Origin: Lachnospiraceae bacterium UBA3814
GTDB lineage: Bacteria; Bacillota; Clostridia; Lachnospirales; Lachnospiraceae
Direction: 5' to 3'
Length of the DNA: 64,000 nucleotides
Assembly (NCBI GenBank): GCA_002368575.1
Contig: DFEA01000040.1
Coordinates: forward strand, 1,300-65,299
The position numbers and the translations under genes are program-made. Positions 1,105 to 23,674 of the stretch are shown in pieces; positions within the stretch are counted from its first letter, which is position 1; each line of letters starts with the position of its first letter. The notes under the pieces are model-generated. The model was given only the letters and a program-made list of their open reading frames with translations. It had not been told where the DNA came from and ran no database searches.

Positions 1105-1887
1105 TTACCGTAATCTGTTTTCGATTGAATTGATCGCATAAAAGCCCTTTGCATTCAGGGAATCCTCCCTGTTATAAAGCATTTCCGTGTCATCCATCTG
1201 CTTAAATATACCGCCGGCCTCCTCTACTATACACTGCATTGCCGCCGTATCCCATTCCATTGTGGGATTGTGTCTGAAGTAGATATCCGCTTCACCCTTT
1301 GCCACAAGGCAGCCCTTTAAGGAGCTTCCGATCCTCAGTATCTTCCTTATATTATACTTTCTTATAAGCTCCTCCATTTCCTCGCAGCCATGGGAGCCGC
1401 TTACCACGGCACTCAGCGCGGAGTGATCCGTATTTTGGGAGACCCTGAGCCTTAACGTTTTCCCGTCGGGCGTCCTCAGATAAGCTCCGTCTCCCTCAGA
1501 AGCATAATAAAGCTCACCGGTCACGGGAACATAGATAACTCCCATCACGCTTCTGTGCTTATTGCTCAGGGCAATGTTTACGGTAAACTGGCCGTTTCTT
1601 TTTATGAATTCCTTTGTTCCGTCCAGAGGATCCACTATAAAGCAGAGGTCGTTTTTGAGCCGCTCCTTATCGTCCTTCTCCTCCTCGGACAGTATCGCAT
1701 GGTCCGGAAAGGCTTTTTTAAGAGCAGCCGTAATCACCATATCAGAGGCTTTATCCGCTCTGGTCAGGGGCGAGCCGTCCTCCTTATACTCTGTTCCGAT
1801 ATCCTTATCCTCATTATATATCTTCAGAATCTCCTCACCGGCCCTTACAGCCGTTTCCATCGCAAGCTTAAGCTCTTCGTTCCACAT
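1105..1887 (-). CDS. cysQ: 3'(2'),5'-bisphosphate nucleotidase (PAP phosphatase), inositol-monophosphatase fold
   Basis: Motifs ILSEEE, FIVDPLDGTKEF and EWDTAA. Start set to ATG at 1887 (MWNEELK), preceded by GGGAGGGA. Last gene of the minus-strand sulfate operon. Confidence 0.8.
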   Translation of the reverse strand: MWNEELKLAMETAVRAGEEILKIYNEDKDIGTEYKEDGSPLTRADKASDMVITAALKKAFPDHAILSEEEKDDKERLKNDLCFIVDPLDGTKEFIKRNGQFTVNIALSNKHRSVMGVIYVPVTGELYYASEGDGAYLRTPDGKTLRLRVSQNTDHSALSAVVSGSHGCEEMEELIRKYNIRKILRIGSSLKGCLVAKGEADIYFRHNPTMEWDTAAMQCIVEEAGGIFKQMDDTEMLYNREDSLNAKGFYAINSIENRLR

Positions 1888-1902
1888 ACATACATCCCTC
1901 CC

Positions 1903-1987
1903 TGCGCTGATCTGCCCGCAGATCATGCGCTTAGGCACAATCCTCAGATTGTGCCGATTCGTTCGGTTTACCGAACGAATCATTTCC
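1903..1987. repeat. Three-hairpin intercistronic element, copy A (H1 1903-1930, H2 1934-1955, H3 1956-1981, tail ATTTCC)
   Basis: Three adjacent stem-loops. Same architecture and shared flanks as 58851-58938. All stem differences between the two copies are compensatory. Confidence 0.7.
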
Positions 1988-1990
1988 TAT

Positions 1991-2022
1991 TCTGCGCCGA
2001 TTTCATTTATGAAATCGTACGC
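1991..2022. repeat. Extra solo copy of hairpin H1 of the same element, abutting the cysA stop codon
   Basis: TCTGCGCCGATTTCA-TTTA-TGAAATCGTACGC is nearly identical to H1 at 58851-58881 (TCTGCGCCGATTTCC-AAA-GGAAATCGTGCGC). Confidence 0.6.
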
Positions 2023-3131
2023 TAACCGGCAAAATACCCGCCGTCGCTATAAAGATATTTTTCAAGCTTCTCCCCTGTCGGATCATCCTTCAGGAGGTAA
2101 CTGTTCTGCATGAGCTCAGTCGTATTATCCTTTACGGCAAACAGCCTGTAGATTATAACGTTCATCTCTTCACCCACTTCGACCGGACGCCTCTCCAGAG
2201 ACCGGTGGGTCACTACCTCCACTCCGTTCACATTAAGCCGAAGCTCCAATGCGCTCCCCTTGAACACGATATCCTTTATCACACCCTTCTGGGAATAGGT
2301 GATAATATCCTTGAAATGAGCATTATCGCTTTTGAAGGCCTCTACAAACTCCGGACGGATGATGGCCCTGTCAAAATCGCCCTTTTCATAGCCGTTAAGC
2401 TTTCCGAAATCCTCCACTATCACAGGCTCCCCTATAAACTGGGAAACAAAGGCCGTTTCCGGCTCCTTGTATATCTTATAGGCCCGGCCCACCTGCTCTA
2501 CTCTGCCCTTATTGGTAACTATGATGCTGTCCGCTACCTCTACCGCCTCATCCTGATCATGAGTAACAAATATGCTGGTGATCCCTACCCTGTGTATCAT
2601 ATCCCTGAGCCACTGCCTGAGATCCTTCCTTACCTTGGCATCCAGAGCCGCAAACGGTTCATCCAGAAGCAGAAGCCCGGGCTCGGGTGCCAGAGCCCTC
2701 GCGAATGCCACTCTCTGTCTCTGACCTCCTGAAAGCTCATTGGGAAATCTTTTCTCGAGCCCCTCAAGCTCTGTAAGCCTGAGCAGCTCATGTACCCTGT
2801 TCTTCACTGCATCCGCGGGAGCCTTCTTTACCGTCAGTCCAAAGGCTATATTATCATAAACCGTCATATAACGGAACAGGGCATAGTTCTGAAAAACAAA
2901 GCCTATGCCCCTCATTGATGCCGGGATGTCATTTACTCTTTTCCCATCGATAAGGATATCTCCGCTGTCTGCCCTTTCAAGACCGGCTATCATCCGAAGT
3001 ATCGTAGTCTTACCGCTTCCGCTTGGTCCCAAAAGCGCGGCAAGCTCCCCCTTTTCCACCGAAAAATTCACATCCTCCGATGCTCTGAAGCTGCCAAAGC
3101 TCTTATTTATATTTCTCATTTCAAGATACAT
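2022..3131 (-). CDS. cysA: Sulfate/thiosulfate ABC transporter ATP-binding protein
   Basis: Walker A GPSGSGKTT, signature LSGGQRQRV, Walker B LLLLDEPF. CysA-like N-terminus and C-terminal extension. GGAGG lies 9 nt upstream of the ATG. Follows two CysT/W-type permeases. Confidence 0.85.
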   Translation of the reverse strand: MYLEMRNINKSFGSFRASEDVNFSVEKGELAALLGPSGSGKTTILRMIAGLERADSGDILIDGKRVNDIPASMRGIGFVFQNYALFRYMTVYDNIAFGLTVKKAPADAVKNRVHELLRLTELEGLEKRFPNELSGGQRQRVAFARALAPEPGLLLLDEPFAALDAKVRKDLRQWLRDMIHRVGITSIFVTHDQDEAVEVADSIIVTNKGRVEQVGRAYKIYKEPETAFVSQFIGEPVIVEDFGKLNGYEKGDFDRAIIRPEFVEAFKSDNAHFKDIITYSQKGVIKDIVFKGSALELRLNVNGVEVVTHRSLERRPVEVGEEMNVIIYRLFAVKDNTTELMQNSYLLKDDPTGEKLEKYLYSDGGYFAG

Positions 3132-3212
3132 ACAACATTCCTCCGCTTATGCGGCTTATACCCGTCGGCTAAGCCTTTACCGGTCCTTTCTGTCCCGTTC
3201 CCGACATGTAAT

Positions 3213-4070
3213 TCACCGCCGTTTCTGCTCCTCCTGTGCCTTCTTCGATCTGTTCTCAAGCACGCAGCGAATCACCAGAAGCACTACCGTAAACAGAACC
3301 AGTATGGATGACACCGCAAAGGCGGCGGTTATGGAATCCGCAGAGCCCGAAAGGTAGAGGGCGTCTATCTCAAGCGGAAGGGTAAAGGTCTCTCCCCTTG
3401 TCTTGGAGAGAGCATTCACCGCTCCGAATTCACCCAGAGCCCTCGCGGTACACAGCACCATTCCGTATAATAAAGCCCATTTCATATGCGGAAAGGTTAT
3501 CCTCCTGAATATGGTAAACATTCCCGCTCCCATTAAAGCCGCCGCATCCTCCTCATCGCTCCCGGCCGCATTAAGGACCGGTATGACCTCTCTTGATACA
3601 AAGGGAAAGGTGACAAAGATCGTGGCAAGAACTACCCCCGGCACCGCGAATACTATCTTTATATCCCAGCCGAAGGCATTATTTACGGCATCCACAAAGG
3701 GAGCCGCCCAGCCCATCCTGCCAAACATCATGATAAAGGCAAGCCCGGCAATGACAGGCGATACGGAAAACGGTATATCTATAAGTGTCTGAAGAAGCTG
3801 CTTGCCCTTAAAGGAAAACCTCGTAAGCAGGATCGAGGCAAAAATACCGAAGACGGTATTTACAATGACCGTTATTACGGTCGCAAGCAGGGTCACCTTT
3901 AACGCGGATATCACGGTTTTCGTGGAGACAGCCTGCAGATAGAATTCAAAGCCCTTTTTCAGGGAATTTATTATCACCATCACAAGCGGCAGAAAAAGCA
4001 TGAGCCCCACAAACAGGGTGCTTACCGTTATCATAAGAAATCTGGTGCTTTTTTTCTTTTTATAACCCAT
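3213..4070 (-). CDS. cysW: Sulfate ABC transporter permease
   Basis: Polytopic permease with EAA-type loop (AAALMGAGMFTIFRRITFP). Second permease in the order sbp-cysT-cysW-cysA. Confidence 0.75.
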   Translation of the reverse strand: MGYKKKKSTRFLMITVSTLFVGLMLFLPLVMVIINSLKKGFEFYLQAVSTKTVISALKVTLLATVITVIVNTVFGIFASILLTRFSFKGKQLLQTLIDIPFSVSPVIAGLAFIMMFGRMGWAAPFVDAVNNAFGWDIKIVFAVPGVVLATIFVTFPFVSREVIPVLNAAGSDEEDAAALMGAGMFTIFRRITFPHMKWALLYGMVLCTARALGEFGAVNALSKTRGETFTLPLEIDALYLSGSADSITAAFAVSSILVLFTVVLLVIRCVLENRSKKAQEEQKRR

Positions 4071-4172
4071 GTGCTTTATCCTTATATATTTCCGTTTTGT
4101 TATGAGCTTCTGTGTAAAGCCTCCGGTGCGGGAAACGCAAAAATAAAAAAAGAACTTTTTCGTTTCCTATAA

Positions 4173-4982
4173 CTACAGTTCATTCGTATGACGGGACTGA
4201 CGTATCTGTACGATGTTCACAAACAACAGTATCAGGAAGGAAATTACCAGCATCAGAAGAGCGACCGCCGTTGCGCCGGCATAATCCATATAGTTAAGCT
4301 TCTGCATTATCACATAGGATACCACCTGTGTCTTTTCCTTTGCGCTGTTTCCCGATATGTATATGACGCTTCCGTACTCCCCTATACCTCTGGCAAAGGC
4401 AAGCCCGAAGCCCGTCAGCATGGCCGGCATTATCTCGGGAAGGATGACCCTTTTAAATGCCGTAAGCTTACCTGCCCCCAGCACATAAGCCGCCTCCTCA
4501 TACTGCTTATCCAGCTTTTCAAGAACGGGCTGCACCGCTCTTACCACAAAGGGGATTCCCACAAATACCAGAGCGACGATGATGCCAAGATGTGTATAAG
4601 CCACATCTATCCCGGCCTTTGACAGCCATTTTCCCGGAAAGCCCGTATTTGAGTACATCTTTGAGAGCGTGATGCCTGCCACCGCCGTAGGCAGGGCAAA
4701 GGGAAGCTCGATAAGCCCGTCTAACAGGAGCTTGAATTTAAACTCATACCGTACAAGTGTCCAGGCAAGAATCACTCCGAAAAAGCAGTTGATCAGCGCA
4801 GCAAAAAGCGAGCACACTATGCTTGTGATAAAGGAATTTCTAACATTGTCCGCAGAAATTATCTCCCAGAACTCCGCAGGGGACAGGGAAAAGCTGTATA
4901 CAAGGATGGATGCAAGCGGTATGAACACTAACAGCGAAAACATGAAGACCGTAACGCCAAAGGTTAATTTAAAGCCCTTCAT
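4173..4982 (-). CDS. cysT: Sulfate ABC transporter permease
   Basis: EAA loop AAYVLGAGKLTAFKRVILP. The ORF-track start at 5006 is TTG. ATG at 4982 has GGAGAAGG upstream, so the start is set there. Confidence 0.75.
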   Translation of the reverse strand: MKGFKLTFGVTVFMFSLLVFIPLASILVYSFSLSPAEFWEIISADNVRNSFITSIVCSLFAALINCFFGVILAWTLVRYEFKFKLLLDGLIELPFALPTAVAGITLSKMYSNTGFPGKWLSKAGIDVAYTHLGIIVALVFVGIPFVVRAVQPVLEKLDKQYEEAAYVLGAGKLTAFKRVILPEIMPAMLTGFGLAFARGIGEYGSVIYISGNSAKEKTQVVSYVIMQKLNYMDYAGATAVALLMLVISFLILLFVNIVQIRQSRHTNEL

Positions 4983-5043
4983 AATCCTTCTCCGTGCCCG
5001 GATCAAAAGTCACATGGCACCTTTGACCCGGGCATCACTATAT

Positions 5044-6135
5044 TTAATTCGAATATATTTCGTCAAATACTCCGCCGTCTTTAAAGTATACGGCATAGGC
5101 TTCGTCCCAGCCGCCGAAGTCGTTAATGGTGCAGAGCTCCATATTAAGGTCGAACTTATCGGCATATTCCTTCAGGACATTCTCATCTGAGGGTCTGTAG
5201 TTATATTCGCCTATGATCCTCTGTGCGTCCTCCGAATAAAGCCACTCAAGATAATCATGGGCAACCTCCGTGGTACCGTTCTTACCGGCGTTTTCATCCA
5301 CAATGGCTACCGAAGGCTGTGCCAGGATGCTTATTGAGGGAGAAACGATCTCGTACTCGCCGGGATATTCCTTTACTGTCGATATCGCCTCGTTTTCCCA
5401 GCTGACAAGCACATCACCCTGCCCGTTCTCAACAAAGGTGGTGGTCGCTCCTCTTGCTCCCGAATCCATTACGACCACGTTTCCGTAAAGCTTACTCATG
5501 AAATCCTTGATCTTTGCTTCATCACCGCCATACTGTCTGTCGGCGTAATACCATGCCGAAAGGAAATTCCAGCAGGCAGCTCCGCTGCTCTTGGGATCGG
5601 GAGATATAACACCCACGCCTTCCTTTATAAGATCATCCCAGTCATGGATATCCTTTTCGTTTCCGGCCCTTACCAGAAACACTATGGTTGAGGTATAGGG
5701 AGAGGAATCCCTTTCAAACTCATCGATCCACCCGCTCTCTATAAGACCTGCCTCCTCGATAAGGGTAATATCATGAGCAAGAGCAAGGGTGACCACATCC
5801 GCGTCGGCTCCTTCGACCACGCTCCTGGCCTGTCCGCCGCTTCCGCCGTGAGACTGTATTATCTCGATCTTCTTTCCGGTCTTCTCCTCATAATGCTTGC
5901 TGAAGGCTTCATTATATGCCGCGTAAAGCTCTCTGGTGGGATCATAGGAAACGTTTGTTATGGTGATGGCCCCGTTCCCATCCCCTTCTCCGGAGGTCTC
6001 GCCCGCCCCGCCGGCCGCGGCGCCGGAAGCCGCACAGCCTCCGAGCAGCAGGCTTATGCATCCTGCAGTAAGGAGCATCGCTATTTTATTTCTATTCTTA
6101 TTTTTATTCATTTTATCCTCCGCATTTCTTCTCAT
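5044..6135 (-). CDS. sbp: Sulfate-binding lipoprotein (Sbp/CysP-type substrate-binding protein)
   Basis: Lipoprotein signal ending LLLGGC, a Gly/Ala-rich linker, then an Sbp-like binding-protein sequence. Leads the transporter block. An alternative ATG at 6111 also has an SD. Confidence 0.75.
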   Translation of the reverse strand: MRRNAEDKMNKNKNRNKIAMLLTAGCISLLLGGCAASGAAAGGAGETSGEGDGNGAITITNVSYDPTRELYAAYNEAFSKHYEEKTGKKIEIIQSHGGSGGQARSVVEGADADVVTLALAHDITLIEEAGLIESGWIDEFERDSSPYTSTIVFLVRAGNEKDIHDWDDLIKEGVGVISPDPKSSGAACWNFLSAWYYADRQYGGDEAKIKDFMSKLYGNVVVMDSGARGATTTFVENGQGDVLVSWENEAISTVKEYPGEYEIVSPSISILAQPSVAIVDENAGKNGTTEVAHDYLEWLYSEDAQRIIGEYNYRPSDENVLKEYADKFDLNMELCTINDFGGWDEAYAVYFKDGGVFDEIYSN

Positions 6136-6220
6136 CTCAATACCTCCCGTTCATAAATAACCGTCGATAAGCACTTAATGAATCCGTTCTGGTTCCCGGG
6201 CTGTTTCCGGAGAAACGGCA

Positions 6221-8047: not shown

Positions 8048-8048
8048 A

Positions 8049-9227: not shown

Positions 9228-9231
9228 GAAA

Positions 9232-9258
9232 ATACTCCCTTCTTTTGAAAGGGAGTAT
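9232..9258. promoter_or_regulatory. Perfect 10-bp inverted repeat ATACTCCCTT-N7-AAGGGAGTAT overlapping the -10 box and the SD of HTH-cysD (candidate operator)
   Basis: Arms at 9232-9241 and 9249-9258 are exact reverse complements. One arm contains the -10 hexamer and the other contains the ribosome-binding site. Confidence 0.5.
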
Positions 9259-9282
9259 ACCTGTTTTTGCATTATATGTCAA
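9254..9282 (-). promoter_or_regulatory. Sigma-A-type promoter of the sulfate operon (TTGACA-17 nt-TATACT)
   Basis: On the minus strand, TTGACA is at 9282-9277 and TATACT at 9259-9254, with a 17-nt spacer. It lies about 30 nt upstream of the ATG at 9227. Confidence 0.65.
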
Positions 9283-9304
9283 GCCTTTTTCAATTCTTTT
9301 TCAG

Positions 9305-10972: not shown

Positions 10973-10996
10973 AAAAATATCTCCGTACAAAACTCT

Positions 10997-13064: not shown

Positions 13065-13090
13065 GATATGCCCTCCATAAGGAAATGCTT

Positions 13091-13140: not shown

Positions 13141-13164
13141 AAGCCGCCGCTCTTTACCTCGCCC

Positions 13165-14313: not shown

Positions 14314-14405
14314 TGACATTCCTTTCAGGTTCTCCAGAGTATCCTAAGAGAACAGCCCGGAGAGCAAGTCTTATTGTTTAAGCTCCATCAGATCAGGAGG
14401 GAATC

Positions 14406-15545
14406 TTATTCATTAGAACCGATAATAGCCTGAATGGCTCTGGTCATAAAAGTACGGCATTTATCATAAAGCTTCAATCTTAAATAAACCGTCTGTTTTA
14501 ACCTGCTGATCTCTTTCTCATGATTAAGTATCATATATCCGAGCATCAGGACGGTATCCTCAAAGAGATGAGGGTCATCTTTGGTCCAGACGGGTTTTTC
14601 TTTAGGTTCCGGGAATAAATGATCCCCTTCATGTACATACTCCGACAGAACCTTTTGATTCCCCTCTTTATAACGGTTCCTTAACATAGATTTCTGTTCG
14701 GGATTTATGAAAACCTCGCTGCCTGATCTGCTTAAGCTTGCGGAACAGTCCGTAGCAGCCGACTGCGCATGGAAGAGTTCTTTTTCTGTAATATTACCTA
14801 TGCCGTCAAGCTTGTTAAGGATTCTCTTTATTTCTATATAATTAGCGTTCAGGGAGGTATTTTTTTCCTCCTCACCTATCTTATATTCATCGGAGGGCTC
14901 CAGTCCGATGGCCTGCAGGAAGTCATTTTCGACCTTCCCTCCGATAAATCTTTTTCTGTCATATATCCTGACGATCATATTCTCTTTACCTACGATCTCC
15001 GACATACGGCAGAGCCCGCTGTAATAATCCGCGCTGGGCCATTTATCCGGATCACTGATATAGGTCTCCCAATCAGAGCAGTCCTTTCCCTCACGGTATT
15101 TTTTTATGTTCTGCTTGTAGCTCGACTCCAGCCAGTCCTCCTGCGGCCTGAAATAAACTACCAGCTTAAGCACAGCATGATTCCGGTCTGCAAAGTTCTT
15201 AATGATCTTCAGGGTCCTGCAGTCAGTCCTGAGAAAATAATTCCAAAGTCCCTCGTCCGTAAGGATCACGGCGTGACAATGCTCAAGCTGATCGCTGACA
15301 CGCTTTAATCCTGCCGCTATCAATCGTTTCTGCTGCCGGGCTGAAGGCTTTCCAAACCAGCGCAGCTTACGGACGTTTAAATACATGGCGTTTCGATTCT
15401 TAAGGGATCGGTCATAAGGCACAGGATCTCTCTTATAGCTGTAGCCCTTCTTTGCAAGCACCTCACGGTTCAGATAAAGAAAGCTCTGGATAGAGGAGGT
15501 CCCTGTCTTGGTAGTTCCGATATGAAGATATATTACCTTGTCCAT
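14406..15545 (-). CDS. Sulfotransferase-like protein (paralog 2)
   Basis: Close paralog of 13165-14313, with identical MDKVIYLHIGTTKTGTSSIQ and LVVYFRPQEDWLESSYKQ. Start set to ATG at 15545 (AAAGAGGA upstream). Confidence 0.5.
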   Translation of the reverse strand: MDKVIYLHIGTTKTGTSSIQSFLYLNREVLAKKGYSYKRDPVPYDRSLKNRNAMYLNVRKLRWFGKPSARQQKRLIAAGLKRVSDQLEHCHAVILTDEGLWNYFLRTDCRTLKIIKNFADRNHAVLKLVVYFRPQEDWLESSYKQNIKKYREGKDCSDWETYISDPDKWPSADYYSGLCRMSEIVGKENMIVRIYDRKRFIGGKVENDFLQAIGLEPSDEYKIGEEEKNTSLNANYIEIKRILNKLDGIGNITEKELFHAQSAATDCSASLSRSGSEVFINPEQKSMLRNRYKEGNQKVLSEYVHEGDHLFPEPKEKPVWTKDDPHLFEDTVLMLGYMILNHEKEISRLKQTVYLRLKLYDKCRTFMTRAIQAIIGSNE

Positions 15546-15653
15546 TTTCCTCTTTTCTGACAAACTCCACACCATATATCAAAACACAGTCATTAATTGT
15601 TCCGGGCATCTCAAATGCCGGAGAACTGCTATATCCTTTAATTACGACAGTCC

Positions 15654-16838
15654 CTACCTGTAAAGGCGATTCAGGATCTTCTTTTTTATCCGGTACAGCT
15701 TTAATTTAATGGAGTGGAAGGAGAGAGAGTTTTCCTTCAGTGACTGTATTTCCTCATGAAGCTGTTTGGTTACATAGCCGAAATATAAGATCATTTCCTC
15801 CTGCATGGCTAAGAGGTCATACTCCCATTTTTCTCCAGAGCTGTCCCCCGACAGGAAAAGCTCTTCCCTGTTTAAATACTCTCCGGCTATACGGCGGTTC
15901 TCGTCCTTATATTCCTCCATCAGCTTACGCCGTTCTTCATCCGAAAAGTAAGAGAGCTTCCTCTCCTCCTTACTGAGACCCGAGCAGTCGATGCTGGCCT
16001 TTTCAAAGAACTTTTTGGTGCTGACCTTAAGAGGCTCATGAGCCTCTGTCAGACGGTTCAGGATCCGCATGATCTCAGTCTGATTGTAGGTCGTGCTTTC
16101 GTTTGAAAGCCCTCCGGGCAGCTCATAATGCCTGATATCTGTGATCCCTATGGCATTCATGAAGACCGAAAAGATAGATCCGCCGTTTTTAGCCCATATG
16201 CCGGGCTCATAAGGTATTACCTCAATATTATCCTTTCCGAAGATACGGGAAAAGGCTGTGAGCATTTTCTCATAGTTGGTGGGGATAATATCCGAATGCT
16301 TATTGTCCGCCAGGAAGGAGTCCCAGCTCTCGGTAGGGAAATGATCCTTTACATCCTGTCTGTAAAAGGAATCAAGAAAGACATCCTGTTTACGCAGAAA
16401 AATGATGACCTTGACATTGAAATCATTTTTTTCGGAGAATTCCTTAACTCTCTTCAGGAAATCCCATCTTGACCAGTCACGGCTGATATGCTCATCTGTC
16501 AGGATCACGTTGGGCTTTTCGTCCAGCCATTTTTTAATTATCCTGAGTCCCTTGTTAAGCCTTCTGACATTCTCCTCATGAGGGTCTCCGGAATTTCCAT
16601 GCAGAAAAATACCATTCCTCAGCTTAGGATATGTACGATAGTTTTCAACAACGACATATTCGCCTTTGCTGTTTTGTATCCTGGTACTACGATCATAATC
16701 ATATAGCTTCGGCAGTCTGAAAATATACCCGTCCTTATATAACCTGGCCTTATTCAGATCAAGAAAATCCTGAATCGCGCTGGTTCCTGTTTTACGAACA
16801 CCAATGTGAATATATAGTGTACGCTTTTGGTCAGTCAT
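15654..16838 (-). CDS. Sulfotransferase-like protein (paralog 3, divergent)
   Basis: LYIHIGVRKTGTSAIQ and VIIFLRKQDVFLDSFYRQ keep both motifs. The rest is much more diverged. Confidence 0.45.
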   Translation of the reverse strand: MTDQKRTLYIHIGVRKTGTSAIQDFLDLNKARLYKDGYIFRLPKLYDYDRSTRIQNSKGEYVVVENYRTYPKLRNGIFLHGNSGDPHEENVRRLNKGLRIIKKWLDEKPNVILTDEHISRDWSRWDFLKRVKEFSEKNDFNVKVIIFLRKQDVFLDSFYRQDVKDHFPTESWDSFLADNKHSDIIPTNYEKMLTAFSRIFGKDNIEVIPYEPGIWAKNGGSIFSVFMNAIGITDIRHYELPGGLSNESTTYNQTEIMRILNRLTEAHEPLKVSTKKFFEKASIDCSGLSKEERKLSYFSDEERRKLMEEYKDENRRIAGEYLNREELFLSGDSSGEKWEYDLLAMQEEMILYFGYVTKQLHEEIQSLKENSLSFHSIKLKLYRIKKKILNRLYR

Positions 16839-16902
16839 TTATAGTATATCCTCTCTTTAACAGAATACAGGAAATATTCTTATGTTGTCTTACACTCATT
16901 AC

Positions 16903-16931
16903 ATGATACTCAAAGAAAAGATACTTGTCAA
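16903..16931 (-). promoter_or_regulatory. Sigma-A-type promoter (TTGACA-17 nt-TATCAT) for the sulfotransferase-like triplet
   Basis: On the minus strand, TTGACA is at 16931-16926 and TATCAT at 16908-16903, with a 17-nt spacer. It lies about 65 nt upstream of the ATG at 16838. Confidence 0.6.
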
Positions 16932-17166
16932 ACATAATACACTGATCCAATAATCGAACCACATATTAACTATGGCATCTTCAAAAGGTATTGACAGTTC
17001 ACCCATCAAGCCTCCTTCATAGGTATTTCTGTATTCCCGATCCGGTTATAATGACAGATAGCATCCCTTCATGTTTTCTTTATTGCAAAAAATCAGATAA
17101 TATGTTAAAAAAATAGTAATAAAGCGAAAGTCTTCTTTGCTTTGGAACACTGGTTATTTAATGCAT

Positions 17167-17339
17167 AATATGATGTCAGAGTCTAAAGTCACACGGCACT
17201 TTTGACCCTGACATCATATTGTGGACTGCCCGACAAAAGGCTGCGAAGCAGCCTCTGGCATACGAGATATGGTGGTCAGGCTTGCCTGAAACCACCATTT
17301 GTCGTATGCCGGAGGAACCCAAAGGGCTTTTGTCGGGCA
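17167..17339 (+). other. Highly structured leader/intergenic element: 13-bp perfect hairpin (17167-17220) plus a ~113-nt nested rod (17227-17339)
   Basis: - Hairpin: AATATGATGTCAG / CTGACATCATATT.
- Rod P1: TGCCCGACAAAAG / CTTTTGTCGGGCA (13 bp).
- Side hairpin: GCTGC-GAA-GCAGC.
- Rod P2: GGCATACGA / TCGTATGCC (9 bp).
- Rod P3: ATGGTGGT / ACCACCAT (8 bp).
- Rod P4: CAGG-CTTG-CCTG.
- The element ends 47 nt before the licD ATG. Confidence 0.4.
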
Positions 17340-17385
17340 ACTCATATTATCAGAAGTATAGATAAAAGAGGCCATTGACAGATAC

Positions 17386-18195
17386 ATGAAGAAACTATCG
17401 TGCAAGGAAATTCAGAAAAAAAGCCTGCAGTTGCTTGTTTTCTTTAATGAATATACTCAAAAAAACAATTTAACGTATTATTTGTCAGGGGGTACTCTTT
17501 TAGGTGCAGTTCGTCATAAAGGTTTTATACCCTGGGACGATGATGTGGATATAATGATGCCCAGAAAGGATTATGAGAGGCTCATACAGGAATTTGAGGA
17601 AACGGAACAGTATTGTGTTTCTTCGTATGAAAATGATCCGGAATTTGAGAATCGATGGGCACGTATCTGGGATAAATATACTGAAAGAGATTTTTTCCTT
17701 TATGATACTAAACGGCTCGGTGTTTATCTGGATATTTTTCCTTTGGATGGTTATCCTGACAGCAGGCTGTTATCTGTCATCCATGATATTCATTTAAGGA
17801 TACTTGTGGAATTGTGGAACACATATATGATACCCGGACCGGGGAATGATCTTCATTTTAAGAGGATACGAAAAGTGATCAGGCGGCTGTTTTATAATGA
17901 ACCGCGAAAAATGAGTAAAAAGATCAATGAAACGGCCATGAAATATGATTATGAAAAATGTAATTATGTCGGGCCGTCTATCTGTATGCATTATATGTTT
18001 AAAGAACGCAACAGAAAGGAAATATACAAACCGATATTTCTACCTTTTGAAGGAGGCATGTTCCCTGCCCCGGCTGGCTATGATATATACCTTAAAAAAC
18101 TGTATGGTGATTATATGCAATTGCCTCCCGAAGAAAAAAGAGTGTCAAATCATGCCTTTGTCATATGGGAGAAAGAACCGGTAAAAGAGGAATAA
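17386..18195 (+). CDS. licD: LicD-family phosphotransferase (paralog 1)
   Basis: LSGGTLLGAVRHKGFIPWDDDVDIMMPRKDYERL and C-terminal LYGDYMQLPPEEKR are LicD-family hallmarks. Confidence 0.8.
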   Translation: MKKLSCKEIQKKSLQLLVFFNEYTQKNNLTYYLSGGTLLGAVRHKGFIPWDDDVDIMMPRKDYERLIQEFEETEQYCVSSYENDPEFENRWARIWDKYTERDFFLYDTKRLGVYLDIFPLDGYPDSRLLSVIHDIHLRILVELWNTYMIPGPGNDLHFKRIRKVIRRLFYNEPRKMSKKINETAMKYDYEKCNYVGPSICMHYMFKERNRKEIYKPIFLPFEGGMFPAPAGYDIYLKKLYGDYMQLPPEEKRVSNHAFVIWEKEPVKEE

Positions 18196-18197
18196 CA

Positions 18198-18914
18198 ATG
18201 TCAAATATTGCACTTATAATCGCAGGCGGAACAGGGAACCGAATGCATCAGGATATCCCTAAGCAATTCCTTACAGTAAATGAAAAGCCGGTTATAATAT
18301 ATACACTGGAAGCCTTTCAGACTCATGCTGATGTGGATGAAATAGCAGTTGTATGCTTAGAAGGCTGGGAGCAGGTGCTTTCCGCTTACGCCAGACAGTT
18401 TAACATTACCAAGCTGAAGCATATTGTAAAAGGAGGCGAGAACGGTCAGTCTTCTATCAGAAACGGCATATTTGAACTGAAGAAGTATCATGCCGAGTCA
18501 GATATAGTACTGATTCATGACGCGATACGACCTCTGGTATCTGCCGAGATCATTTCTGACTGCATAGTGAAGACCAAGCAATATGGTTCCGCCATAGCAA
18601 CAATCCCTTGTGCAGAAGCTATGCTGATGACTGAGAACGGAGTTACCTCATCCGGTACATATAAACGGGAATTATTAAAGAGAACACAGACTCCACAGGG
18701 ATTTTTCTTAAACAAAATATATGAGATTCACAAAAAGGCTTTGGAAAGAGGAATAAATGACTCTGTGGCTTCATGTACTTTAATGATCGAGATGGGAGAA
18801 CAGGTGCATTTTTCTGCAGGATCAGAGAAGAATATTAAACTGACTACCATAGATGATATTGATATTTTCAAAGCATTGTTGTTGGCAAGCCGTTCTGCAT
18901 GGTTAAAAGAATAG
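18198..18914 (+). CDS. tarI: IspD/TarI-family cytidylyltransferase (CDP-alditol, probably CDP-ribitol, synthase component)
   Basis: N-terminus IALIIAGGTGNRMHQDIPKQFL and overall IspD/TarI pattern. Start set to ATG at 18198 (AAAAGAGG upstream). Followed by an SDR reductase-type gene. Confidence 0.7.
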   Translation: MSNIALIIAGGTGNRMHQDIPKQFLTVNEKPVIIYTLEAFQTHADVDEIAVVCLEGWEQVLSAYARQFNITKLKHIVKGGENGQSSIRNGIFELKKYHAESDIVLIHDAIRPLVSAEIISDCIVKTKQYGSAIATIPCAEAMLMTENGVTSSGTYKRELLKRTQTPQGFFLNKIYEIHKKALERGINDSVASCTLMIEMGEQVHFSAGSEKNIKLTTIDDIDIFKALLLASRSAWLKE

Positions 18915-18930
18915 TGGGCTGGAAATATAT

Positions 18931-19980
18931 ATGATCAGATACTGTGAAAACTATTGGAAGGATGTAGAGCGTGTTCTTTCTCATATCAGAAATATTGAGG
19001 CATTATTTGGAAGATCAGTATTCGTGACAGGGGCAACGGGAATGATCTGCTCTTCGGTTATTGAGTTGTTATGGTACCTGAACCATAGCCGGAAAGCAGA
19101 AATAAGAATTGAAGCCGCGGGACGCAATATTGAAAAAACGATGCGTAGATTTTACCCTCTCAGCGAAGGTCTGGATTATCATTTTGTGAAGTATGATTCA
19201 TCAAAAAGTGATACACTTTCGGTATCACCGGATTTTGTGATACATGGGGCAGGATATGGTGACCCCGAGATGATCTCACGGCAGCCGGTTGAAGTAATGC
19301 TTTCTAATATAACCGGATTGGAGACTATTTTGAGATGCGCTTGCAGCAATGATACAAAAAGAGTATTATACATCTCTTCAAGTGAGGTTTATGGTAATAA
19401 AGAAGAGAATGGGTTATTTTCAGAAAATATGTATGGCTATCTGGATATTCTGAAAGAGAGAGCATCATATCCAAGTTCAAAGCGGGCTGGAGAAAGCCTC
19501 TGTGTGGCATATCAAAGCGAGTATAACTTGAATACTGTAATTGTACGGCCAGGGCATATTTACGGTCCTTCTATTACGGATAGTGATAGCAGGGCCTCTG
19601 CTCAGTTTACCAGAGCGTGTGCGCGTGGGGAAAATATAACTATGAAAAGCGCCGGTCTGCAGAAACGTTCGTATTGCTATACTCTCGACTGCGCATCAGC
19701 AATTATTACTGCAATGATAAATGGAGAAAGGGGCAATGCCTATAATATCTCAAATTCGGATTCCATATGTACGATCCGTGATATGGCATATGCCCTGGCC
19801 GATGAGTCAGGCGTTAATGTGATTTTTGAAAATGCAAGTGATATGGAAAAAAAGAGTTATAATCTTATGAACAATTCCGCATTATCGTCTGAAAAACTGG
19901 AAATGCTCGGATGGAAAGCGGAATTCAGCTTGAAGGAAGGCGTTAAGAAGACTTTGTCTTATTACATAAACAGTTATTAA
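18931..19980 (+). CDS. Extended short-chain dehydrogenase/reductase (NAD(P)-dependent epimerase/dehydratase fold)
   Basis: Rossmann VFVTGATGMICSS and catalytic YPSSK. Its position after the TarI-like gene recalls the split form of the H. influenzae Bcs1 (cytidylyltransferase + SDR reductase) CDP-ribitol synthase. That link is an inference. Confidence 0.6.
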   Translation: MIRYCENYWKDVERVLSHIRNIEALFGRSVFVTGATGMICSSVIELLWYLNHSRKAEIRIEAAGRNIEKTMRRFYPLSEGLDYHFVKYDSSKSDTLSVSPDFVIHGAGYGDPEMISRQPVEVMLSNITGLETILRCACSNDTKRVLYISSSEVYGNKEENGLFSENMYGYLDILKERASYPSSKRAGESLCVAYQSEYNLNTVIVRPGHIYGPSITDSDSRASAQFTRACARGENITMKSAGLQKRSYCYTLDCASAIITAMINGERGNAYNISNSDSICTIRDMAYALADESGVNVIFENASDMEKKSYNLMNNSALSSEKLEMLGWKAEFSLKEGVKKTLSYYINSY

Positions 19981-20008
19981 TCCTGTTAATGGGAAGGATT
20001 TGTGAAGC

Positions 20009-20446
20009 ATGAAACGAGTTATTACATACGGAACATTCGATCTTCTGCACTATGGACACATAAATCTTTTACGAAGGGCTAAGGCTATGGGCGATTATCT
20101 GATCGTTGCCCTGTCAACAGATAGATTTAATAGTGTGGAGAAAAACAAAAAATGCTACTTTTCATACCAGCAAAGGAAGGCTATGCTTGAATCTATCCGG
20201 TATGTGGATCTGGTGATCCCGGAGGACGGCTGGGAGCAAAAAAAAGAGGATGTACATCTATATCATATCGACATCTTTGTCATGGGTGATGATTGGGAGG
20301 GAAAGTTTGATTTTTTGAAGGATGAAGGTGTTGAGGTTGTGTATTTGTCAAGAACTCCTGAAATAAGCAGCACACAGATCAAAAATGATTTTAAAAGCAG
20401 AGATGATGCAGATATTTCCAGGATATTTACAGATGATATGAAATAA
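20009..20446 (+). CDS. tagD: Glycerol-3-phosphate cytidylyltransferase
   Basis: MKRVITYGTFDLLHYGHINLLRRAK..FVMGDDWEGKFDFLK..RTPEISSTQIK is nearly colinear with B. subtilis TagD as I recall it. Confidence 0.85.
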   Translation: MKRVITYGTFDLLHYGHINLLRRAKAMGDYLIVALSTDRFNSVEKNKKCYFSYQQRKAMLESIRYVDLVIPEDGWEQKKEDVHLYHIDIFVMGDDWEGKFDFLKDEGVEVVYLSRTPEISSTQIKNDFKSRDDADISRIFTDDMK

Positions 20447-20520
20447 AGCGCAGGAATGTATTTGTGTACGTCATAAAAACCATTGAACCGTATATCTTCT
20501 GAAAATGAGAGGGCAATAAT

Positions 20521-21312
20521 GTGACTCAGGCAGAATACTTAAATATCATTCAGGATGCAAACTATGATCTGTTGTGCAGGATAGACAGGATATGCAAGGA
20601 TAATGATCTTCATTATACTCTTCAATCCGGCACTCTTTTAGGCGCGGTTCGCCATAAAGATTTTATACCCTGGGATGATGATGTGGATATAGTCGTAACA
20701 AGAGAGGAGTATGAAAGGTTTATTAGCATATTCACTAAGGAATCTTCACCGAGATTTCATTTGGAACTTCCAGAGGATCGTCCCTTCTATTTTGATTTTG
20801 TTCCGCGGATTGAAAACAGAGAAAAGCCTTTGATCATTAACGGCGAAACGGTGTATCCCTGTGTGGATATTTTTATTGCCGATCATATTGGCAAAAATGA
20901 GAGATGGCATCTTTTTAAGCTAAAACTCATCATTGCCCTGGCAATTGGACATCGTACATATAAAGATTACTCCAAATTTACAACTCTCGCTGAGAAAATA
21001 GGAGGAAGGATCCTTCCTGCCATAGGACGCCTGATCCCATTGTCAGTACTGATAAAGCAGTATAAGAAGGTTCAGAGTAAGTTTCCCACAGGAGATGCCG
21101 TATTTCTGTCGAATGATAAAACGATCCCCGGTGTATGGGGGCTGTTATACCCGGAAGGCTTCTTTAAGAGACCCGGTTCCGTTGTGAACATCAGAAATAA
21201 AGAGTTTCCCGCACCCTGCGATCCGGATCTTCTTTTGAAAAAAATGTATGGAAATTATATGGAGCTTCCACCGGAAAACAAGAGAATTCCAGAGCATATC
21301 GGTCATGCATGA
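20521..21312 (+). CDS. licD: LicD-family phosphotransferase (paralog 2)
   Basis: QSGTLLGAVRHKDFIPWDDDVDIVVTREEYERF and MYGNYMELPPENKR. GTG start with GAGAGGG upstream. Confidence 0.75.
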   Translation: MTQAEYLNIIQDANYDLLCRIDRICKDNDLHYTLQSGTLLGAVRHKDFIPWDDDVDIVVTREEYERFISIFTKESSPRFHLELPEDRPFYFDFVPRIENREKPLIINGETVYPCVDIFIADHIGKNERWHLFKLKLIIALAIGHRTYKDYSKFTTLAEKIGGRILPAIGRLIPLSVLIKQYKKVQSKFPTGDAVFLSNDKTIPGVWGLLYPEGFFKRPGSVVNIRNKEFPAPCDPDLLLKKMYGNYMELPPENKRIPEHIGHA

Positions 21313-21378
21313 ACACCAGGCGTATGAAAAGGAACAGAGCGACAGACGGTTTTATGACTGTGGATATTCAAAAGCATA

Positions 21379-22389
21379 CTATAACTCAAAAGTCGACTTA
21401 TCAGGCAAAATATTATTCAATGCACTATTCAATATTTCTTTGGTATTTTCAAAATCCTCATCTTTACATTTATCGTTAAAACACATTAATTTATAACGCT
21501 GTTTTCTAATATCTTCTATCATTTGAGGAATACATTCTTTCTCAGTCTTATACTTTTTCCCTATTTTAGGTGACCGAGGTACAAATTTACCAGTTGCAAA
21601 CTGCCAATATGTAAAAACCCAATGACTCAGATCGTTTGGCTGACGAAGCTTATGAGAACAGCCTTCCGACAATAACAACTCTTCTTTGGCCCACACATCC
21701 TTATACGTAGACTTAAGGTACGCATACGGAAGGTGAGGGTCCCTGAATCCGGTAAATATTTTGTGAGGGAATAAATAAAGATTGAACAACAGTCCCGTTC
21801 CATAACAGGGAGAAAACCATTTCTTAAGATTTTTACATATCACTTTGTGTTTACTAAAATGCTGGTTTATCAGAACTGTATCAAATAAGGGAGCCATCCA
21901 CCTGGGTTCGTCCGGATTTGTGATCATACTGGGCCAGACCTTCATAATAGCTGAATCACACGGCAATCCTTCTTTAAAGAAATCCTCCTGCTTAACCACA
22001 TTCGTCAAAAACATATCATCGTTAAAATAGACAAAATGCTCCGACAGATGTTCAATGCGATGAAAATTCATATCTATGCATCGACTTGAGAAAGTAGGAA
22101 GCCACTCATGTGGTATATAGTCTTCATGACTTATCAATTCAAGCTTTGGATGATTCAGATTCAACCATTTTGGATAATGTCCACAGGTTACGAAGAATAC
22201 TTTATGTACCCACGGAGCATATTTTTCTATACCGCGGAATAGATACTGAAGGTTATCCCAATCTCTAAATCGCCTGTTTCTGGAGTCTCCTTTTTCCTGG
22301 CTGTATTTTTTTTTCTCAGCCGCCCACTCCGGATCGTTGCCGTCTACCCATGTAATGATAAAATCTATATCTAAAGAATCAGATCTCAC
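21379..22389 (-). CDS. Stealth-family (CR1-CR4) sugar-1-phosphate transferase
   Basis: CR1 IDFIITWVDGNDPEW; CR2 LQYLFRGIEKYAPWVHKVFFVT; CR3 FVYFNDDMFL. Confidence 0.8.
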   Translation of the reverse strand: MRSDSLDIDFIITWVDGNDPEWAAEKKKYSQEKGDSRNRRFRDWDNLQYLFRGIEKYAPWVHKVFFVTCGHYPKWLNLNHPKLELISHEDYIPHEWLPTFSSRCIDMNFHRIEHLSEHFVYFNDDMFLTNVVKQEDFFKEGLPCDSAIMKVWPSMITNPDEPRWMAPLFDTVLINQHFSKHKVICKNLKKWFSPCYGTGLLFNLYLFPHKIFTGFRDPHLPYAYLKSTYKDVWAKEELLLSEGCSHKLRQPNDLSHWVFTYWQFATGKFVPRSPKIGKKYKTEKECIPQMIEDIRKQRYKLMCFNDKCKDEDFENTKEILNSALNNILPDKSTFEL

Positions 22390-22403
22390 AGCTAACCCCC
22401 AAT

Positions 22404-22823
22404 CTATTCCTTATCTTTTAATTCTGTCAGGGTCTCAGTAATAATAGTCGAAGAAACCCCTCGTGTATATGGAAAATACACTAGCTGGATCCCATTATCC
22501 TTCATTTCTTTTTCGTAATCCTGCCATTTTGGAGTTCCATACCAGTCGTCTCCGACAAATAATACAGAAGCGCCGATCTTTTTACACACAGAAAGCTTAT
22601 CCATATCATATTGTGGGATAGCCGCATCGACAAATCTTATACTTCTGACGATCTCTATCCTGTCCTCAAAAGGAATCATCGCTTTTTTCCCTTTATATGT
22701 GACCAGATCATCTACTGTAACACCTACGATCAATCGATCACACATCCCCTTTGCATTCTTAAGCAGATTAAGATGTCCAATATGAAAAAGATCAAAAACA
22801 CCCGCAGTATAGCCAATTATCAA
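22404..22823 (-). CDS. TagD-like cytidylyltransferase-family protein (HxGH class), substrate unknown
   Basis: MIIGYTAGVFDLFHIGHLNLLKNAK, ..VGDDW.. and ..RGVSSTII match the cytidylyltransferase family pattern. It is a more distant TagD relative than 20009-20446. Confidence 0.7.
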   Translation of the reverse strand: MIIGYTAGVFDLFHIGHLNLLKNAKGMCDRLIVGVTVDDLVTYKGKKAMIPFEDRIEIVRSIRFVDAAIPQYDMDKLSVCKKIGASVLFVGDDWYGTPKWQDYEKEMKDNGIQLVYFPYTRGVSSTIITETLTELKDKE

Positions 22824-23674
22824 AACAATTCTCCCCGATTTTCTTTTTTCTGATAAAATGAATATGGTTTGGAAAGATCTACAAAAACATAGTTATCATG
22901 TCCTATTCTTTGATCCACAGGCGGAAGCTCCATGTAGTTTCCGAAAAAAATTGTCAGAAAGTCATCCCATCCTTTAGGACAATGTATTGTCGTATTTTCA
23001 AATGTAAGATCAACATGATCATCAAAATCATTCTTAGAAAAAATGCGAGTACCGTTCCATAGCTTGTACGACCAAACGTATCCGACATACTTTGCAGAGT
23101 GTACTGGGTACTTACGAAGGAGCCCCATCCATAGATTTGAAAAGAAATTATACCGTATGCAAAAAGAAAGCGTTTTTAAAACATGCCAACAAATTCTACC
23201 CTTCACCGTAGGAATTTCCGTAATAGGACGCCTCCGAACATAATCAAGCCTGCATAATAAATTAAAATAGAGTTTGTATAGACGTTCGCGTCCTTCATTT
23301 AAGGGGATTCCTGCAAGCGGCATCACATCCAGATAAAGGCCAAAGTATTCCTGCGGGTAATCCTGCATTGATTCCAAAATACAAGTGGTTCTGTTATCCG
23401 CAATCCTCAGGATGACCCCAAACCGATGAGGAAGATCTGCAGAAGAAATAACCTCAAGATGTTCCGGCAACTCTGTTCTGGCTAAAGATACAAATCTATC
23501 AAAATGCTCTATCGGAATAGCAATATCCATATCATCGTCCCATGGAATAAAACCTTTATGCCTCACCGCTCCAAGGCAGGTTCCTCCGATGGCAAAATAA
23601 GGTATCTTATTCCTATCACATAATGCAGATACCTCCATAAATATATTTAAAATAACTTCTTGAAGCTGTGTCAT
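22820..23674 (-). CDS. licD: LicD-family phosphotransferase (paralog 3)
   Basis: IGGTCLGAVRHKGFIPWDDDMDIAIPIEHFDRF and FFGNYMELPPVDQR. Overlaps the downstream gene by 4 nt. Confidence 0.75.
   Translation of the reverse strand: MTQLQEVILNIFMEVSALCDRNKIPYFAIGGTCLGAVRHKGFIPWDDDMDIAIPIEHFDRFVSLARTELPEHLEVISSADLPHRFGVILRIADNRTTCILESMQDYPQEYFGLYLDVMPLAGIPLNEGRERLYKLYFNLLCRLDYVRRRPITEIPTVKGRICWHVLKTLSFCIRYNFFSNLWMGLLRKYPVHSAKYVGYVWSYKLWNGTRIFSKNDFDDHVDLTFENTTIHCPKGWDDFLTIFFGNYMELPPVDQRIGHDNYVFVDLSKPYSFYQKKENRGELF

Follow-up and report, generated by a model that had tools for sequence, protein, structure and literature searches.

A 64,000-nt stretch of the genome of Lachnospiraceae bacterium UBA3814 (assembly GCA_002368575.1, contig DFEA01000040.1, positions 1,300 to 65,299), referred to below as the window, carries a seven-gene cys operon for the import and activation of sulfate (1105-9227, minus strand) and a triplet of paralogous open reading frames (ORFs; 13165-16838, same strand). 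The operon is predicted to end at 3'-phosphoadenosine 5'-phosphosulfate (PAPS), and the three paralogs are very probably PAPS-sulfotransferases, an assignment drawn from their motifs and from the company that their family keeps in other genomes. A module of LicD, cytidylyltransferase and Stealth genes lies directly beyond the triplet. The model that we favour, with a probability of roughly 0.6, is that the PAPS operon feeds the triplet, which sulfates the surface glycan built by the neighbouring module.

The three paralogs and their family

Paralog C (15654..16838) is the first gene of the triplet, is preceded by a promoter-like site (16931-16903, TTGACA-17-TATCAT, 11/12) and is 31% identical to paralog A. 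Paralog B (14406..15575, with a likely start at 15545) is 57% identical to A and identical to the 379-aa protein P0007. Paralog A (13165..14319) is a sulfotransferase-like protein of the DUF8374-type family according to its motifs and its AlphaFold (AF2) model, predicted to be cytoplasmic and to have a long C-terminal helix. An earlier interpretation made from the letters alone, the sequence-only reading, had described three paralogous ORFs with PAPS-binding-loop-like motifs about 4 kb from the operon and on its strand. This description holds, with the motifs HIGxxKTGTS and (Y/F)(L/F)R(P/K)Q(E/D)xxxxS being common to all three.

The conservation of these motifs was counted across 163 family sequences. 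In the loop, K15 is present in 161 of the 163 and T16, G/A17, T/S18 and T/S19 in 162 each, and the flanking residues H10 (156/163), G12 (160/163) and Q22 (162/163) are similarly constant. A K-x-G-T-[TS] sequence after the first beta-strand is the 5'-phosphosulfate-binding (PSB) loop of sulfotransferases, and not the Walker A GK[ST] (Kakuta/Negishi); P-loop kinases carry GxxxxGK[ST]. An hhalign comparison puts the family loop in register with that of NDST1. The second conserved region reads YLR137(R/P)QDxxxxS145xxxQ, with R137 in 163/163, S145 in 155/163 and Q149 in 150/163, and in the model it spans strand E128-136 and helix H139-153. The 3'-phosphate-binding (3'-PB) motif of sulfotransferases has an Arg at a strand end and a Ser eight residues on, in the next helix, and R137 and S145 would thus be the corresponding motif, with a role in PAPS binding. 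E102, at the end of strand E96-101, is invariant (163/163) and is the candidate catalytic base; NDST1 and 3-OST use Glu in this role.

Pfam and NCBIfam models gave zero matches to paralogs A, B and C, even at E values up to 1. Among 37 family members scanned at the same limit, the only recurrent Pfam families were Sulfotransfer_1, Sulfotransfer_3 and Sulfotransfer_4, each with weak sub-threshold matches in seven members (best E 0.003), and all other Pfam matches occurred once or twice. Three relatives with tandem copies of the domain score above the Pfam gathering threshold, P0064 for Sulfotransfer_1 (41.1 bits > 22) and P0066 and P0130 for Sulfotransfer_4 (33.9 and 54 bits > 22.8), and the family profile covers the stretches in which these matches fall. 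A single-sequence search of the PDB with P0010 returned nothing.

The AF2 model of paralog A (pLDDT 88.4, pTM 0.85) ends in a 50-residue helix and has neither a signal peptide nor a membrane span, which fits a cytoplasmic enzyme, located where PAPS is available. With the full model, the best Foldseek matches were 3rnl, a sulfotransferase from Alicyclobacillus (E 2.6e-4), and NDST1 (E 7.9e-4), and the match to 3-OST-1 has a TM-score of 0.64 when normalised to target length. With a re-modelled core of 235 aa, the kinase PFK-2 and the sulfotransferase TPST tied at E 3.4e-4. Sulfotransferases and P-loop kinases are interleaved in these results, so that the fold would suit a sulfotransferase without deciding the matter. 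The profile and fold searches that the sequence-only reading had proposed thus give a divided answer: some family members have Sulfotransfer matches, the window ORFs have none, and the fold search does not separate sulfotransferases from kinases. NDST1, 3-OST-1/3/5 and 3RNL, the best structural matches, share with the window family the PSB loop (I)IGxxKTGT(T/S), the 3'-PB Arg/Ser pair and the Glu as candidate base. They differ from it in that identities are 11-14% and TM-scores 0.34-0.64, and in that two elements of the window family are missing from them, an insertion of 60 residues that follows the PSB loop and a helical extension of about 150 residues at the C-terminus.

The family is very large. 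A word-indexed search recovered 61 relatives of the window ORFs, and an exhaustive profile search recovered 35,761 clusters at 50% identity with E up to 1e-3, and 6,664 with E up to 1e-30. In the species genomes of GTDB, at least 491 stretches contain family members, mostly from Lachnospiraceae and other Clostridia, with a best identity of 38%. Members from Campylobacter match a window ORF at E 1e-13 to 1e-16 and carry the precomputed label PF28160/DUF8374, a label that the closer homologs from Clostridia do not carry; nothing relevant on DUF8374/PF28160 was found in the literature searched. Some members consist of two to four tandem domain copies in one polypeptide, of up to 1,676 aa, and some relatives (P0115, P0196) are fused to a family 4 glycosyltransferase (GT4). 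The tandem-domain or GT4-fused proteins are P0062-P0067, P0084, P0115, P0130 and P0196.

Linkage of the family to PAPS synthesis

Co-occurrence was assessed in the best 80 of the at least 491 GTDB stretches (L013-L092), one per species. A gene for the kinase of adenosine 5'-phosphosulfate (APS), cysC, lies within 10 kb of the homolog in 36 of the 80 species loci; 27 of these also have cysD/cysN and nine have a stand-alone cysC. By our own estimate, chance would bring a single-copy gene to within 10 kb of a randomly chosen one in fewer than 1% of cases. The homolog and cysC are on the same strand in 35 of the 36, at a median gap of 66 bp and usually in the order cysD-cysNC-homolog. Many of the other 44 loci are on truncated contigs, and 36/80 is therefore a lower bound. 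The co-occurrence check that the sequence-only reading had put forward, of the ORF family with cysNC and cysQ, is strongly positive for cysC or cysDNC, which lie within 10 kb in these 36 species and are nearly always immediate neighbours of the homolog.

The linkage extends to another phylum. In a capsule locus of C. coli (L006) the gene order is DUF8374-cysQ-cysD-cysN-permease-cysC-DUF8374-kpsS-kpsC, and family members in Campylobacter have capsule sugar genes on one side and kpsS/kpsC on the other. That PAPS-synthesis genes accompany the family across phyla is the strongest argument for its use of PAPS. With cysC linkage being family-wide, functional coupling of the window's operon and triplet is the simpler reading, and the adjacent operon in all likelihood supplies the paralogs with PAPS.

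A different role was also considered for the Campylobacter homologs. A 3'-phospho-CDP-amidate donor has been proposed for O-methyl-phosphoramidate transfer in Campylobacter, and the homologs could have been O-methyl-phosphoramidate transferases with a CDP-amidate donor. This idea was rejected because their loci carry the full set of cysD, cysN, cysC, cysQ and a sulfate-type permease.

The surroundings of the stand-alone members in L013-L092 include a response regulator in 18 loci, a histidine kinase in 15 and the ATPase of an ATP-binding cassette (ABC) transporter in 13, and an Acyl_transf_3 protein is also a recurrent neighbour in the 80 loci. A ChrA-type 'chromate' transporter often lies 3' of the cassette, in seven loci and also in L002 (cysD-cysNC-homolog-ChrA-type transporter), and may be the sulfate importer of the cassette. 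Stand-alone cassette members occur, for example, in the isolates Parablautia sp. Marseille-Q6255 (L039) and Eubacterium oxidoreducens DSM 3217 (L036).

The cys operon and the absence of a reductive branch from the window

All seven cys genes announced by the sequence-only reading were found, co-directional on the minus strand and spaced by 1-102 bp. The first, HTH-cysD (8049-9227), encodes a HigA-like helix-turn-helix (HTH) domain fused in frame to the small subunit of sulfate adenylyltransferase (HTH_3, PAPS_reduct; NF009214 513.6 > 413). It is followed by cysNC (6221-8047), a fusion of the sulfate adenylyltransferase large subunit and APS kinase (GTP_EFTU; NF004035 843.6 > 715) called as 608 aa in two assemblies. 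The genes of a sulfate ABC importer (2022..6135) come next, namely sbp (5044-6135; SBP_bac_11, NF008022 399.1 bits > 288), the permease genes cysT (4173-5006) and cysW (3213-4070), both with Pfam BPD_transp_1, and the ATPase gene cysA (2022-3131; Pfam ABC_tran). The last gene is cysQ (1105..1983), encoding a 3'(2'),5'-bisphosphate nucleotidase that removes 3'-phosphoadenosine 5'-phosphate (PAP) (Inositol_P E 1e-55; TIGR01331 247.3 bits > 228.8). Curated NCBIfam cut-offs are passed by CysD, CysNC, Sbp and CysQ, and the permeases and the ATPase are assigned by Pfam only. The APS_kinase domain lies at residues 460-609 of the CysNC product (Pfam, E 1e-65), which bears out the earlier claim that a CysC domain makes PAPS the end product: the pathway ends at PAPS since CysNC carries the APS kinase.

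A sigma-70-like promoter pattern upstream of HTH-cysD (9254..9282, minus strand, TTGACA-17-TATACT), which had been taken to drive the operon, is real as a pattern, matching 11 of 12 positions, but is a consensus match only. The pattern (9282-9254) overlaps the ATG at 9272, the first of the mechanically called HTH-cysD ORF, and because of this overlap the ATG at 9227, which is 3' of an AAGGGAG ribosome-binding site, was taken as the most likely true start. Counted from ATG 9227, the leader is only about 20 nt long, too short for an S-box or T-box, and an Rfam scan of the window gave zero families at gathering score, S-box and T-box included; the operon is therefore predicted not to be under S-box or T-box control. 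The HTH occupies the first ~100 residues of HTH-cysD (TIGR02607 64.5 bits > 47.7) and may serve the operon as an autoregulator. The fusion was found again in a second assembly and in none of 27 other CysD genes beside family members. At the usual CysD start (~8948) there is an internal ATG, with GAGGG as its ribosome-binding site.

Pfam scans of the window, covering all non-overlapped ORFs from about 180 aa upwards, found no second PAPS_reduct-family gene, no NIR_SIR and no PALP enzyme in the 64 kb, and tblastn with E. coli CysH (a query checked against PDB 2O8V/1SUR) matched only cysD. These results agree with the earlier statement that cysH, sulfite reductase and cysteine synthase are missing from the window. 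The earlier proviso that cysH might lie just outside can be answered on the side of the contig end: the window is part of a 111-kb contig, and the ~4 kb between the window and the contig end likewise lack cysH, sulfite reductase and cysteine synthase. To the left of cysQ there is a full-length YfhO gene and an ISL3 transposase, and then the contig ends. No cysH, as a second PAPS_reduct-family gene, was found in the 36 related cysC cassettes. The ISL3-family transposase (L094 13606-14817) is about 3.5 kb past the left edge of the window, beyond YfhO, and at this point the glycan/cys region borders on either a mobile element or a break in the assembly.

At 0.47-0.52, the cys operon resembles most of the window in GC content, against 0.37-0.46 in the 13-24 kb block, in line with the caveat already raised that the operon is GC-richer than the block containing the triplet. 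The 3.9 kb between cysD and the triplet hold two AAA-ATPase_like/PDDEXK_9 genes (9305-10990 and 11364-13064, both minus strand, Pfam), which the sequence-only reading does not mention. An AAA_14 + DUF4143 ATPase gene lies at 23912-25357 (plus strand, Pfam), and AAA-ATPases of the window's type also adjoin sulfotransferase-like genes in L003-L005, L010, L065 and L096.

The neighbouring glycan module

An operon divergent from the triplet (17386..21312, plus strand) encodes, in order, LicD, an IspD/TarI-like cytidylyltransferase, a short-chain dehydrogenase/reductase (SDR) of the epimerase/dehydratase type, TagD and a second LicD (Pfam LicD, IspD, Epimerase and CTP_transf_like). TagD, the CDP-glycerol synthase, passes its curated threshold (TIGR01518 201.1 bits > 165.4), and the TarI-like product is below the cut-offs for both IspD (168.9 < 181.3) and ribitol-5-P cytidylyltransferase (152.8 < 166). 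No TarJ-type reductase was found, and there is an SDR instead. On the minus strand there follow a Stealth hexose-1-phosphoryltransferase (21379-22389, Stealth_CR1-4), a second small cytidylyltransferase (22404-22823, TIGR01518 89.5 bits, below cut-off) and a third licD (22820-23674, Pfam LicD). A PglK/MsbA-like ABC exporter (25368..27134, minus strand; ABC_membrane, ABC_tran; PglK 336 bits, below cut-off) is a candidate flippase for a lipid-linked product, and its counterpart also adjoins the triplet in L003-L005, in the P0004 contig and in L096.

The LicD/TarI/TagD/Stealth module at 17386-23674 is therefore as the sequence-only reading had it, with three LicD, an IspD/TarI-like enzyme, an SDR, TagD and Stealth. 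Its term 'teichoic-acid-like' is loose wording: no Glyphos_transf domain of a TagF/TarL-type polymerase was found among the scanned ORFs of the window, and the module is of the LicD/Stealth type of phosphodiester decoration. In L010, by contrast, a distant homolog has a Glyphos_transf gene in its vicinity. The term 'phosphodiester-decorated wall polysaccharide' therefore describes the product better than 'teichoic acid'. The window as a whole is a surface-glycan super-locus, with Wzm/Wzt (58955-61186), glycosyltransferases of the GT2, GT4 and GT8 families, RmlC and two PglK/MsbA-type exporters, and the cys operon is flanked by envelope-glycan genes left and right, the one at the left edge being YfhO.

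Every contig with a close homolog (55% identity or more) puts that homolog inside a Stealth/IspD/LicD module. In L003-L005 a Stealth gene, an IspD gene and three sulfotransferase-like genes are in one string on one strand, and then come an AAA-ATPase, an ABC exporter, an enzyme dependent on thiamine pyrophosphate (TPP) and a GT2; in the P0004 contig, four LicD, IspD, a TagD-like protein, an SDR and an ABC exporter surround three family members; and in L096 tandem family copies are beside the exporter. A scan of metagenomes for close relatives yielded one locus of 4.7 kb only. Distant members occur in ABC-2/GT loci beside recognised sulfotransferases (L008, L009) and in a TagF/Stealth locus (L010). 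The acceptor is probably subfamily-specific, and for the window the neighbouring wall glycopolymer is, by gene context, somewhat the better bet. The earlier proposal of PAPS made for a wall glycopolymer is accordingly upheld in so far as a sulfotransferase-like family is tied to PAPS synthesis, and its choice of acceptor is drawn from context and concerns the close subfamily only.

Several other features of the super-locus were recorded. The triplet and licD diverge from a region of 547 bp, which contains two very stable nested hairpins of 186 nt (17160-17345, plus strand; -104.9 kcal/mol, z = -11.7 against shuffled sequences). The element is single-copy in the window, matches no Rfam family, and its exact stem pattern was not found in related loci; it may serve the licD operon as a leader RNA, or be a palindromic element resembling a miniature inverted-repeat transposable element. 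An acetolactate-synthase-like TPP enzyme (28062-29894, minus strand), below all NCBIfam cut-offs, travels with the triplet, the ABC exporter and GT2 in L003-L005, and we presume that it may be a YerE-like branched-sugar enzyme. A full pathway of the nonulosonic-acid/Kdo type is encoded at 27142-28020 and 39367-45570 (minus strand), with two NeuB, a DAHP_synth_1 protein (Kdo8P-synthase-like), a UDP-GlcNAc 2-epimerase and a CMP-sugar synthetase, and further with a PglD-like acetyltransferase, a GFO/IDH/MocA oxidoreductase and an AMP-binding enzyme. Finally, a GH25 lysozyme with choline-binding-type repeats (61903-63990, minus strand) adjoins this locus with its three LicD phosphotransferases, a hint that the wall may carry a phosphocholine-type (or related) ligand to which a repeat-anchored autolysin could bind.

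Proposed pathway and alternative explanations

In the proposed pathway, Sbp and CysTWA of the 1105-9227 operon would import sulfate, CysD and CysN would activate it to APS, the CysC domain would phosphorylate APS to PAPS, and CysQ would clear the by-product PAP. The three cytoplasmic paralogs, as part of a large and highly divergent branch of the PAPS-sulfotransferase fold (DUF8374), would take the operon's PAPS as sulfuryl donor. Their acceptors would most likely be up to three different hydroxyls on a lipid-linked, phosphodiester-decorated surface glycan built by the LicD/CDP-alditol (TarI-like, TagD)/Stealth module next door, with sulfation taking place on the cytoplasmic face before export by the PglK-like ABC exporter or by Wzm/Wzt. 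Catalytic activity, and use of the operon exclusively for sulfation, are what we infer from this arrangement.

A number of observations weigh against this model. With regard to the enzymes, the window paralogs themselves match no sulfotransferase model; the family profile had no significant match among PDB sequences, the best sulfotransferase being 3rnl at E 0.75; hhalign sets the family loop onto 'IIGPQKTGTTALYLFL' (IIGPQKTGTT) of NDST1 (sequence 100% identical to 1NST), but with this single-sequence template the alignment covers the PSB loop alone, 22 columns at a probability of 15%; and in the Foldseek rankings of the full model and of the core alike, PFK-2, polynucleotide kinase and zeta toxin come level with sulfotransferases. 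With regard to the donor, the two unrelated genes and the GC difference separate the cys operon from the triplet, the loci L003-L005 carry the triplet but have no cys genes within 10 kb, and assimilatory loci, too, typically include a complete sulfate ABC importer. With regard to the acceptor, two or more glycan-type genes are found in only 5 of the 80 GTDB loci, from which it follows that the family is not intrinsically glycan-specific.

The structural ranking, in which adenylate kinase also scores as high as the sulfotransferases, and the lack of any match between the window ORFs and a sulfotransferase model would fit a reading of the ORFs as P-loop kinases or phosphotransferases, or as transferases with some other 3'-phospho-nucleotide donor, acting on the LicD/Stealth polymer, and the locus is rich in phosphodiester chemistry. 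We consider this very improbable: the Walker A lysine is missing and the loop, G-x-x-K-T-G-T-[TS], has the PSB form, R137...S145 matches the 3'-phosphate-binding motif, the bridging Pfam matches are to sulfotransferase families only, and the operonic partners are APS kinase and ATP sulfurylase, not phosphoramidate genes. It is also quite unlikely, if less so, that the adjacency is a coincidence, with an ordinary assimilatory cys operon (cysH and sulfite reductase being elsewhere) beside a horizontally acquired, AT-rich glycan island. The GC step, the intervening AAA-ATPase/PDDEXK genes, the triplet modules without a nearby cys operon in L003-L005 and the complete importer all speak for it, as does the fact that E. 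coli has cysDNC, cysQ and cysJIH at separate places; the first three indicate that the present juxtaposition is not ancestral to the triplet module. However, the triplet would draw its PAPS from the operon even if the latter were assimilatory, and the cysC linkage in 36/80 loci makes a functional tie simpler. Moreover, cysQ is within the operon, as in the Campylobacter capsule locus, the leader of ~20 nt shows no S-box or T-box, envelope-glycan genes bracket the operon, and none of the 36 cassettes has cysH.

Another explanation leaves the enzymes and their donor as proposed and changes the acceptor, which could be small molecules, lipids or glycolipids, or another glycan; hydroxy fatty acids, sterols and a nonulosonic-acid-bearing flagellin or S-layer glycan are examples. 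Most of the distant relatives are found in a stand-alone cassette of cysD, cysNC and a sulfotransferase-like gene that has no glycan genes around it; recurrent neighbours are two-component systems, an ABC ATPase and a ChrA-type transporter. The P0015 locus lacks both cys and glycan genes, and the window itself contains a full nonulosonic-acid pathway. There are also precedents in gut bacteria: Clostridia sulfonate hydroxy fatty acids via ErSULT (PMC13449962), and Bacteroides sulfates cholesterol from a cluster of PAPS genes and a SULT (PMC9417993). ErSULT and BtSULT, however, belong to recognised Pfam sulfotransferase families, unlike the window family, and close homologs of the latter are always in a Stealth/IspD/LicD module, some as one co-directional string. 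GT4 fusions and the position of the Campylobacter members among capsule genes likewise favour a glycan, and three tandem paralogs suit regiospecific decoration of a repeat unit. We therefore regard a different acceptor as unlikely and retain sulfation of the neighbouring surface glycan as the preferred model.

Comparison with known systems

In Sinorhizobium meliloti, NodP/NodQ and NodH provide dedicated PAPS synthesis for Nod-factor sulfation. The logic is that proposed for the window: PAPS comes from a CysD/CysNC-type source whose genes lie beside that of a carbohydrate sulfotransferase, and reductive genes are absent. In contrast, NodH (discussed in PMC11625862) is a Pfam Sulfotransfer_3 protein of a proteobacterium, its acceptor is a lipo-chitooligosaccharide signal, and the cluster has neither a sulfate importer nor cysQ. 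The Bt_0411-0416 cluster of B. thetaiotaomicron places sulfate import and PAPS genes beside the cholesterol sulfotransferase BtSULT (PMC9417993). It resembles the arrangement proposed for the window in having PAPS genes next to a PAPS-dependent sulfotransferase in a gut bacterium, and differs in its host or dietary sterol acceptor, in the recognised family of its enzyme and in having no glycan locus.

'Cluster VI' of C. jejuni HS:19 reads cstI-cysD-cysN-permease-cysC-CjjRM3420_1439, where the gene after cysD-cysN-permease-cysC is annotated as a 'putative sulphotransferase', and as Campylobacter lacks cysH/cysJ its authors argued for the sulphation of biomolecules (PMC8743553). HS:19 and the C. 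coli locus L006 share with the window what is apparently the same protein family and a complete PAPS supply beside surface-glycan genes. The Campylobacter proteins, of 470-560 aa, differ in possessing an additional coiled-coil/C-terminal region. Over 59% of the query they are only ~33% identical to it, and the setting is a Gram-negative kps capsule; for the HS:19 gene, family membership follows from gene order and not from sequence.

ErSULT of Eubacterium ramulus was found via Pfam Sulfotransfer_1-5 lists and resembles Stf1 of M. tuberculosis (PMC13449962). It is a PAPS-dependent sulfotransferase of a gut Lachnospiraceae-type bacterium (PMC13449962), as the window proteins are proposed to be, but the window family is invisible to the Sulfotransfer_1-5 models, and Pfam-based surveys of gut sulfotransferases consequently miss it. 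As for the presumed acceptor, the LicD/TarI/TagD/Stealth polymers of Firmicutes share with the window a CDP-glycerol synthase, a CDP-alditol cytidylyltransferase, LicD, Stealth and ABC export, and teichoic acids differ in their Glyphos_transf (TagF/TarL) polymerase, which is lacking among the scanned ORFs. No paper on the sulfation of teichoic-type or LicD/CDP-alditol/Stealth polymers of Firmicutes was found in the literature searched, and a review of polysaccharide sulfotransferases does not mention Firmicutes (PMC11625862).

Significance

Dedicated PAPS supply beside a sulfotransferase is already known from NodPQ/NodH and Bt_0411-0416 and has been proposed for Campylobacter HS:19. What is new here is the evidence suggesting that an unannotated family is a very large, divergent sulfotransferase branch, together with a conserved cassette of cysD, cysNC and a sulfotransferase-like gene across Clostridia, and a triplet of such genes embedded in a LicD/CDP-alditol/Stealth module of a Firmicute. 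The broader proposition, that gut Lachnospiraceae sulfate a teichoic-acid-like wall polysaccharide at up to three positions via an unrecognised family, is put forward tentatively, at somewhat less than even odds.

Rhizobia, cyanobacteria, marine bacteria and archaea are known to make sulfated surface polymers. Sulfate esters alter the surface charge of bacteria, their recognition by phages and antibodies, their binding by lectins, Siglecs and selectins, and their binding of cations. If the model is true, the polymer of this locus would be the first sulfated polymer of the teichoic type in Firmicutes, and PAPS-dependent sulfation would be widespread in gut Clostridia. If the family consists of sulfotransferases, the sulfation capacity of gut Clostridia would be underestimated by surveys based on the Pfam Sulfotransfer models. 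The cassette of cysD, cysNC and the sulfotransferase-like gene offers clear genes for knock-out and expression, and, since the DUF8374-type family is apparently also present in the capsule loci of the Guillain-Barré-associated HS:19 type, a biochemical assignment would transfer to this pathogen.

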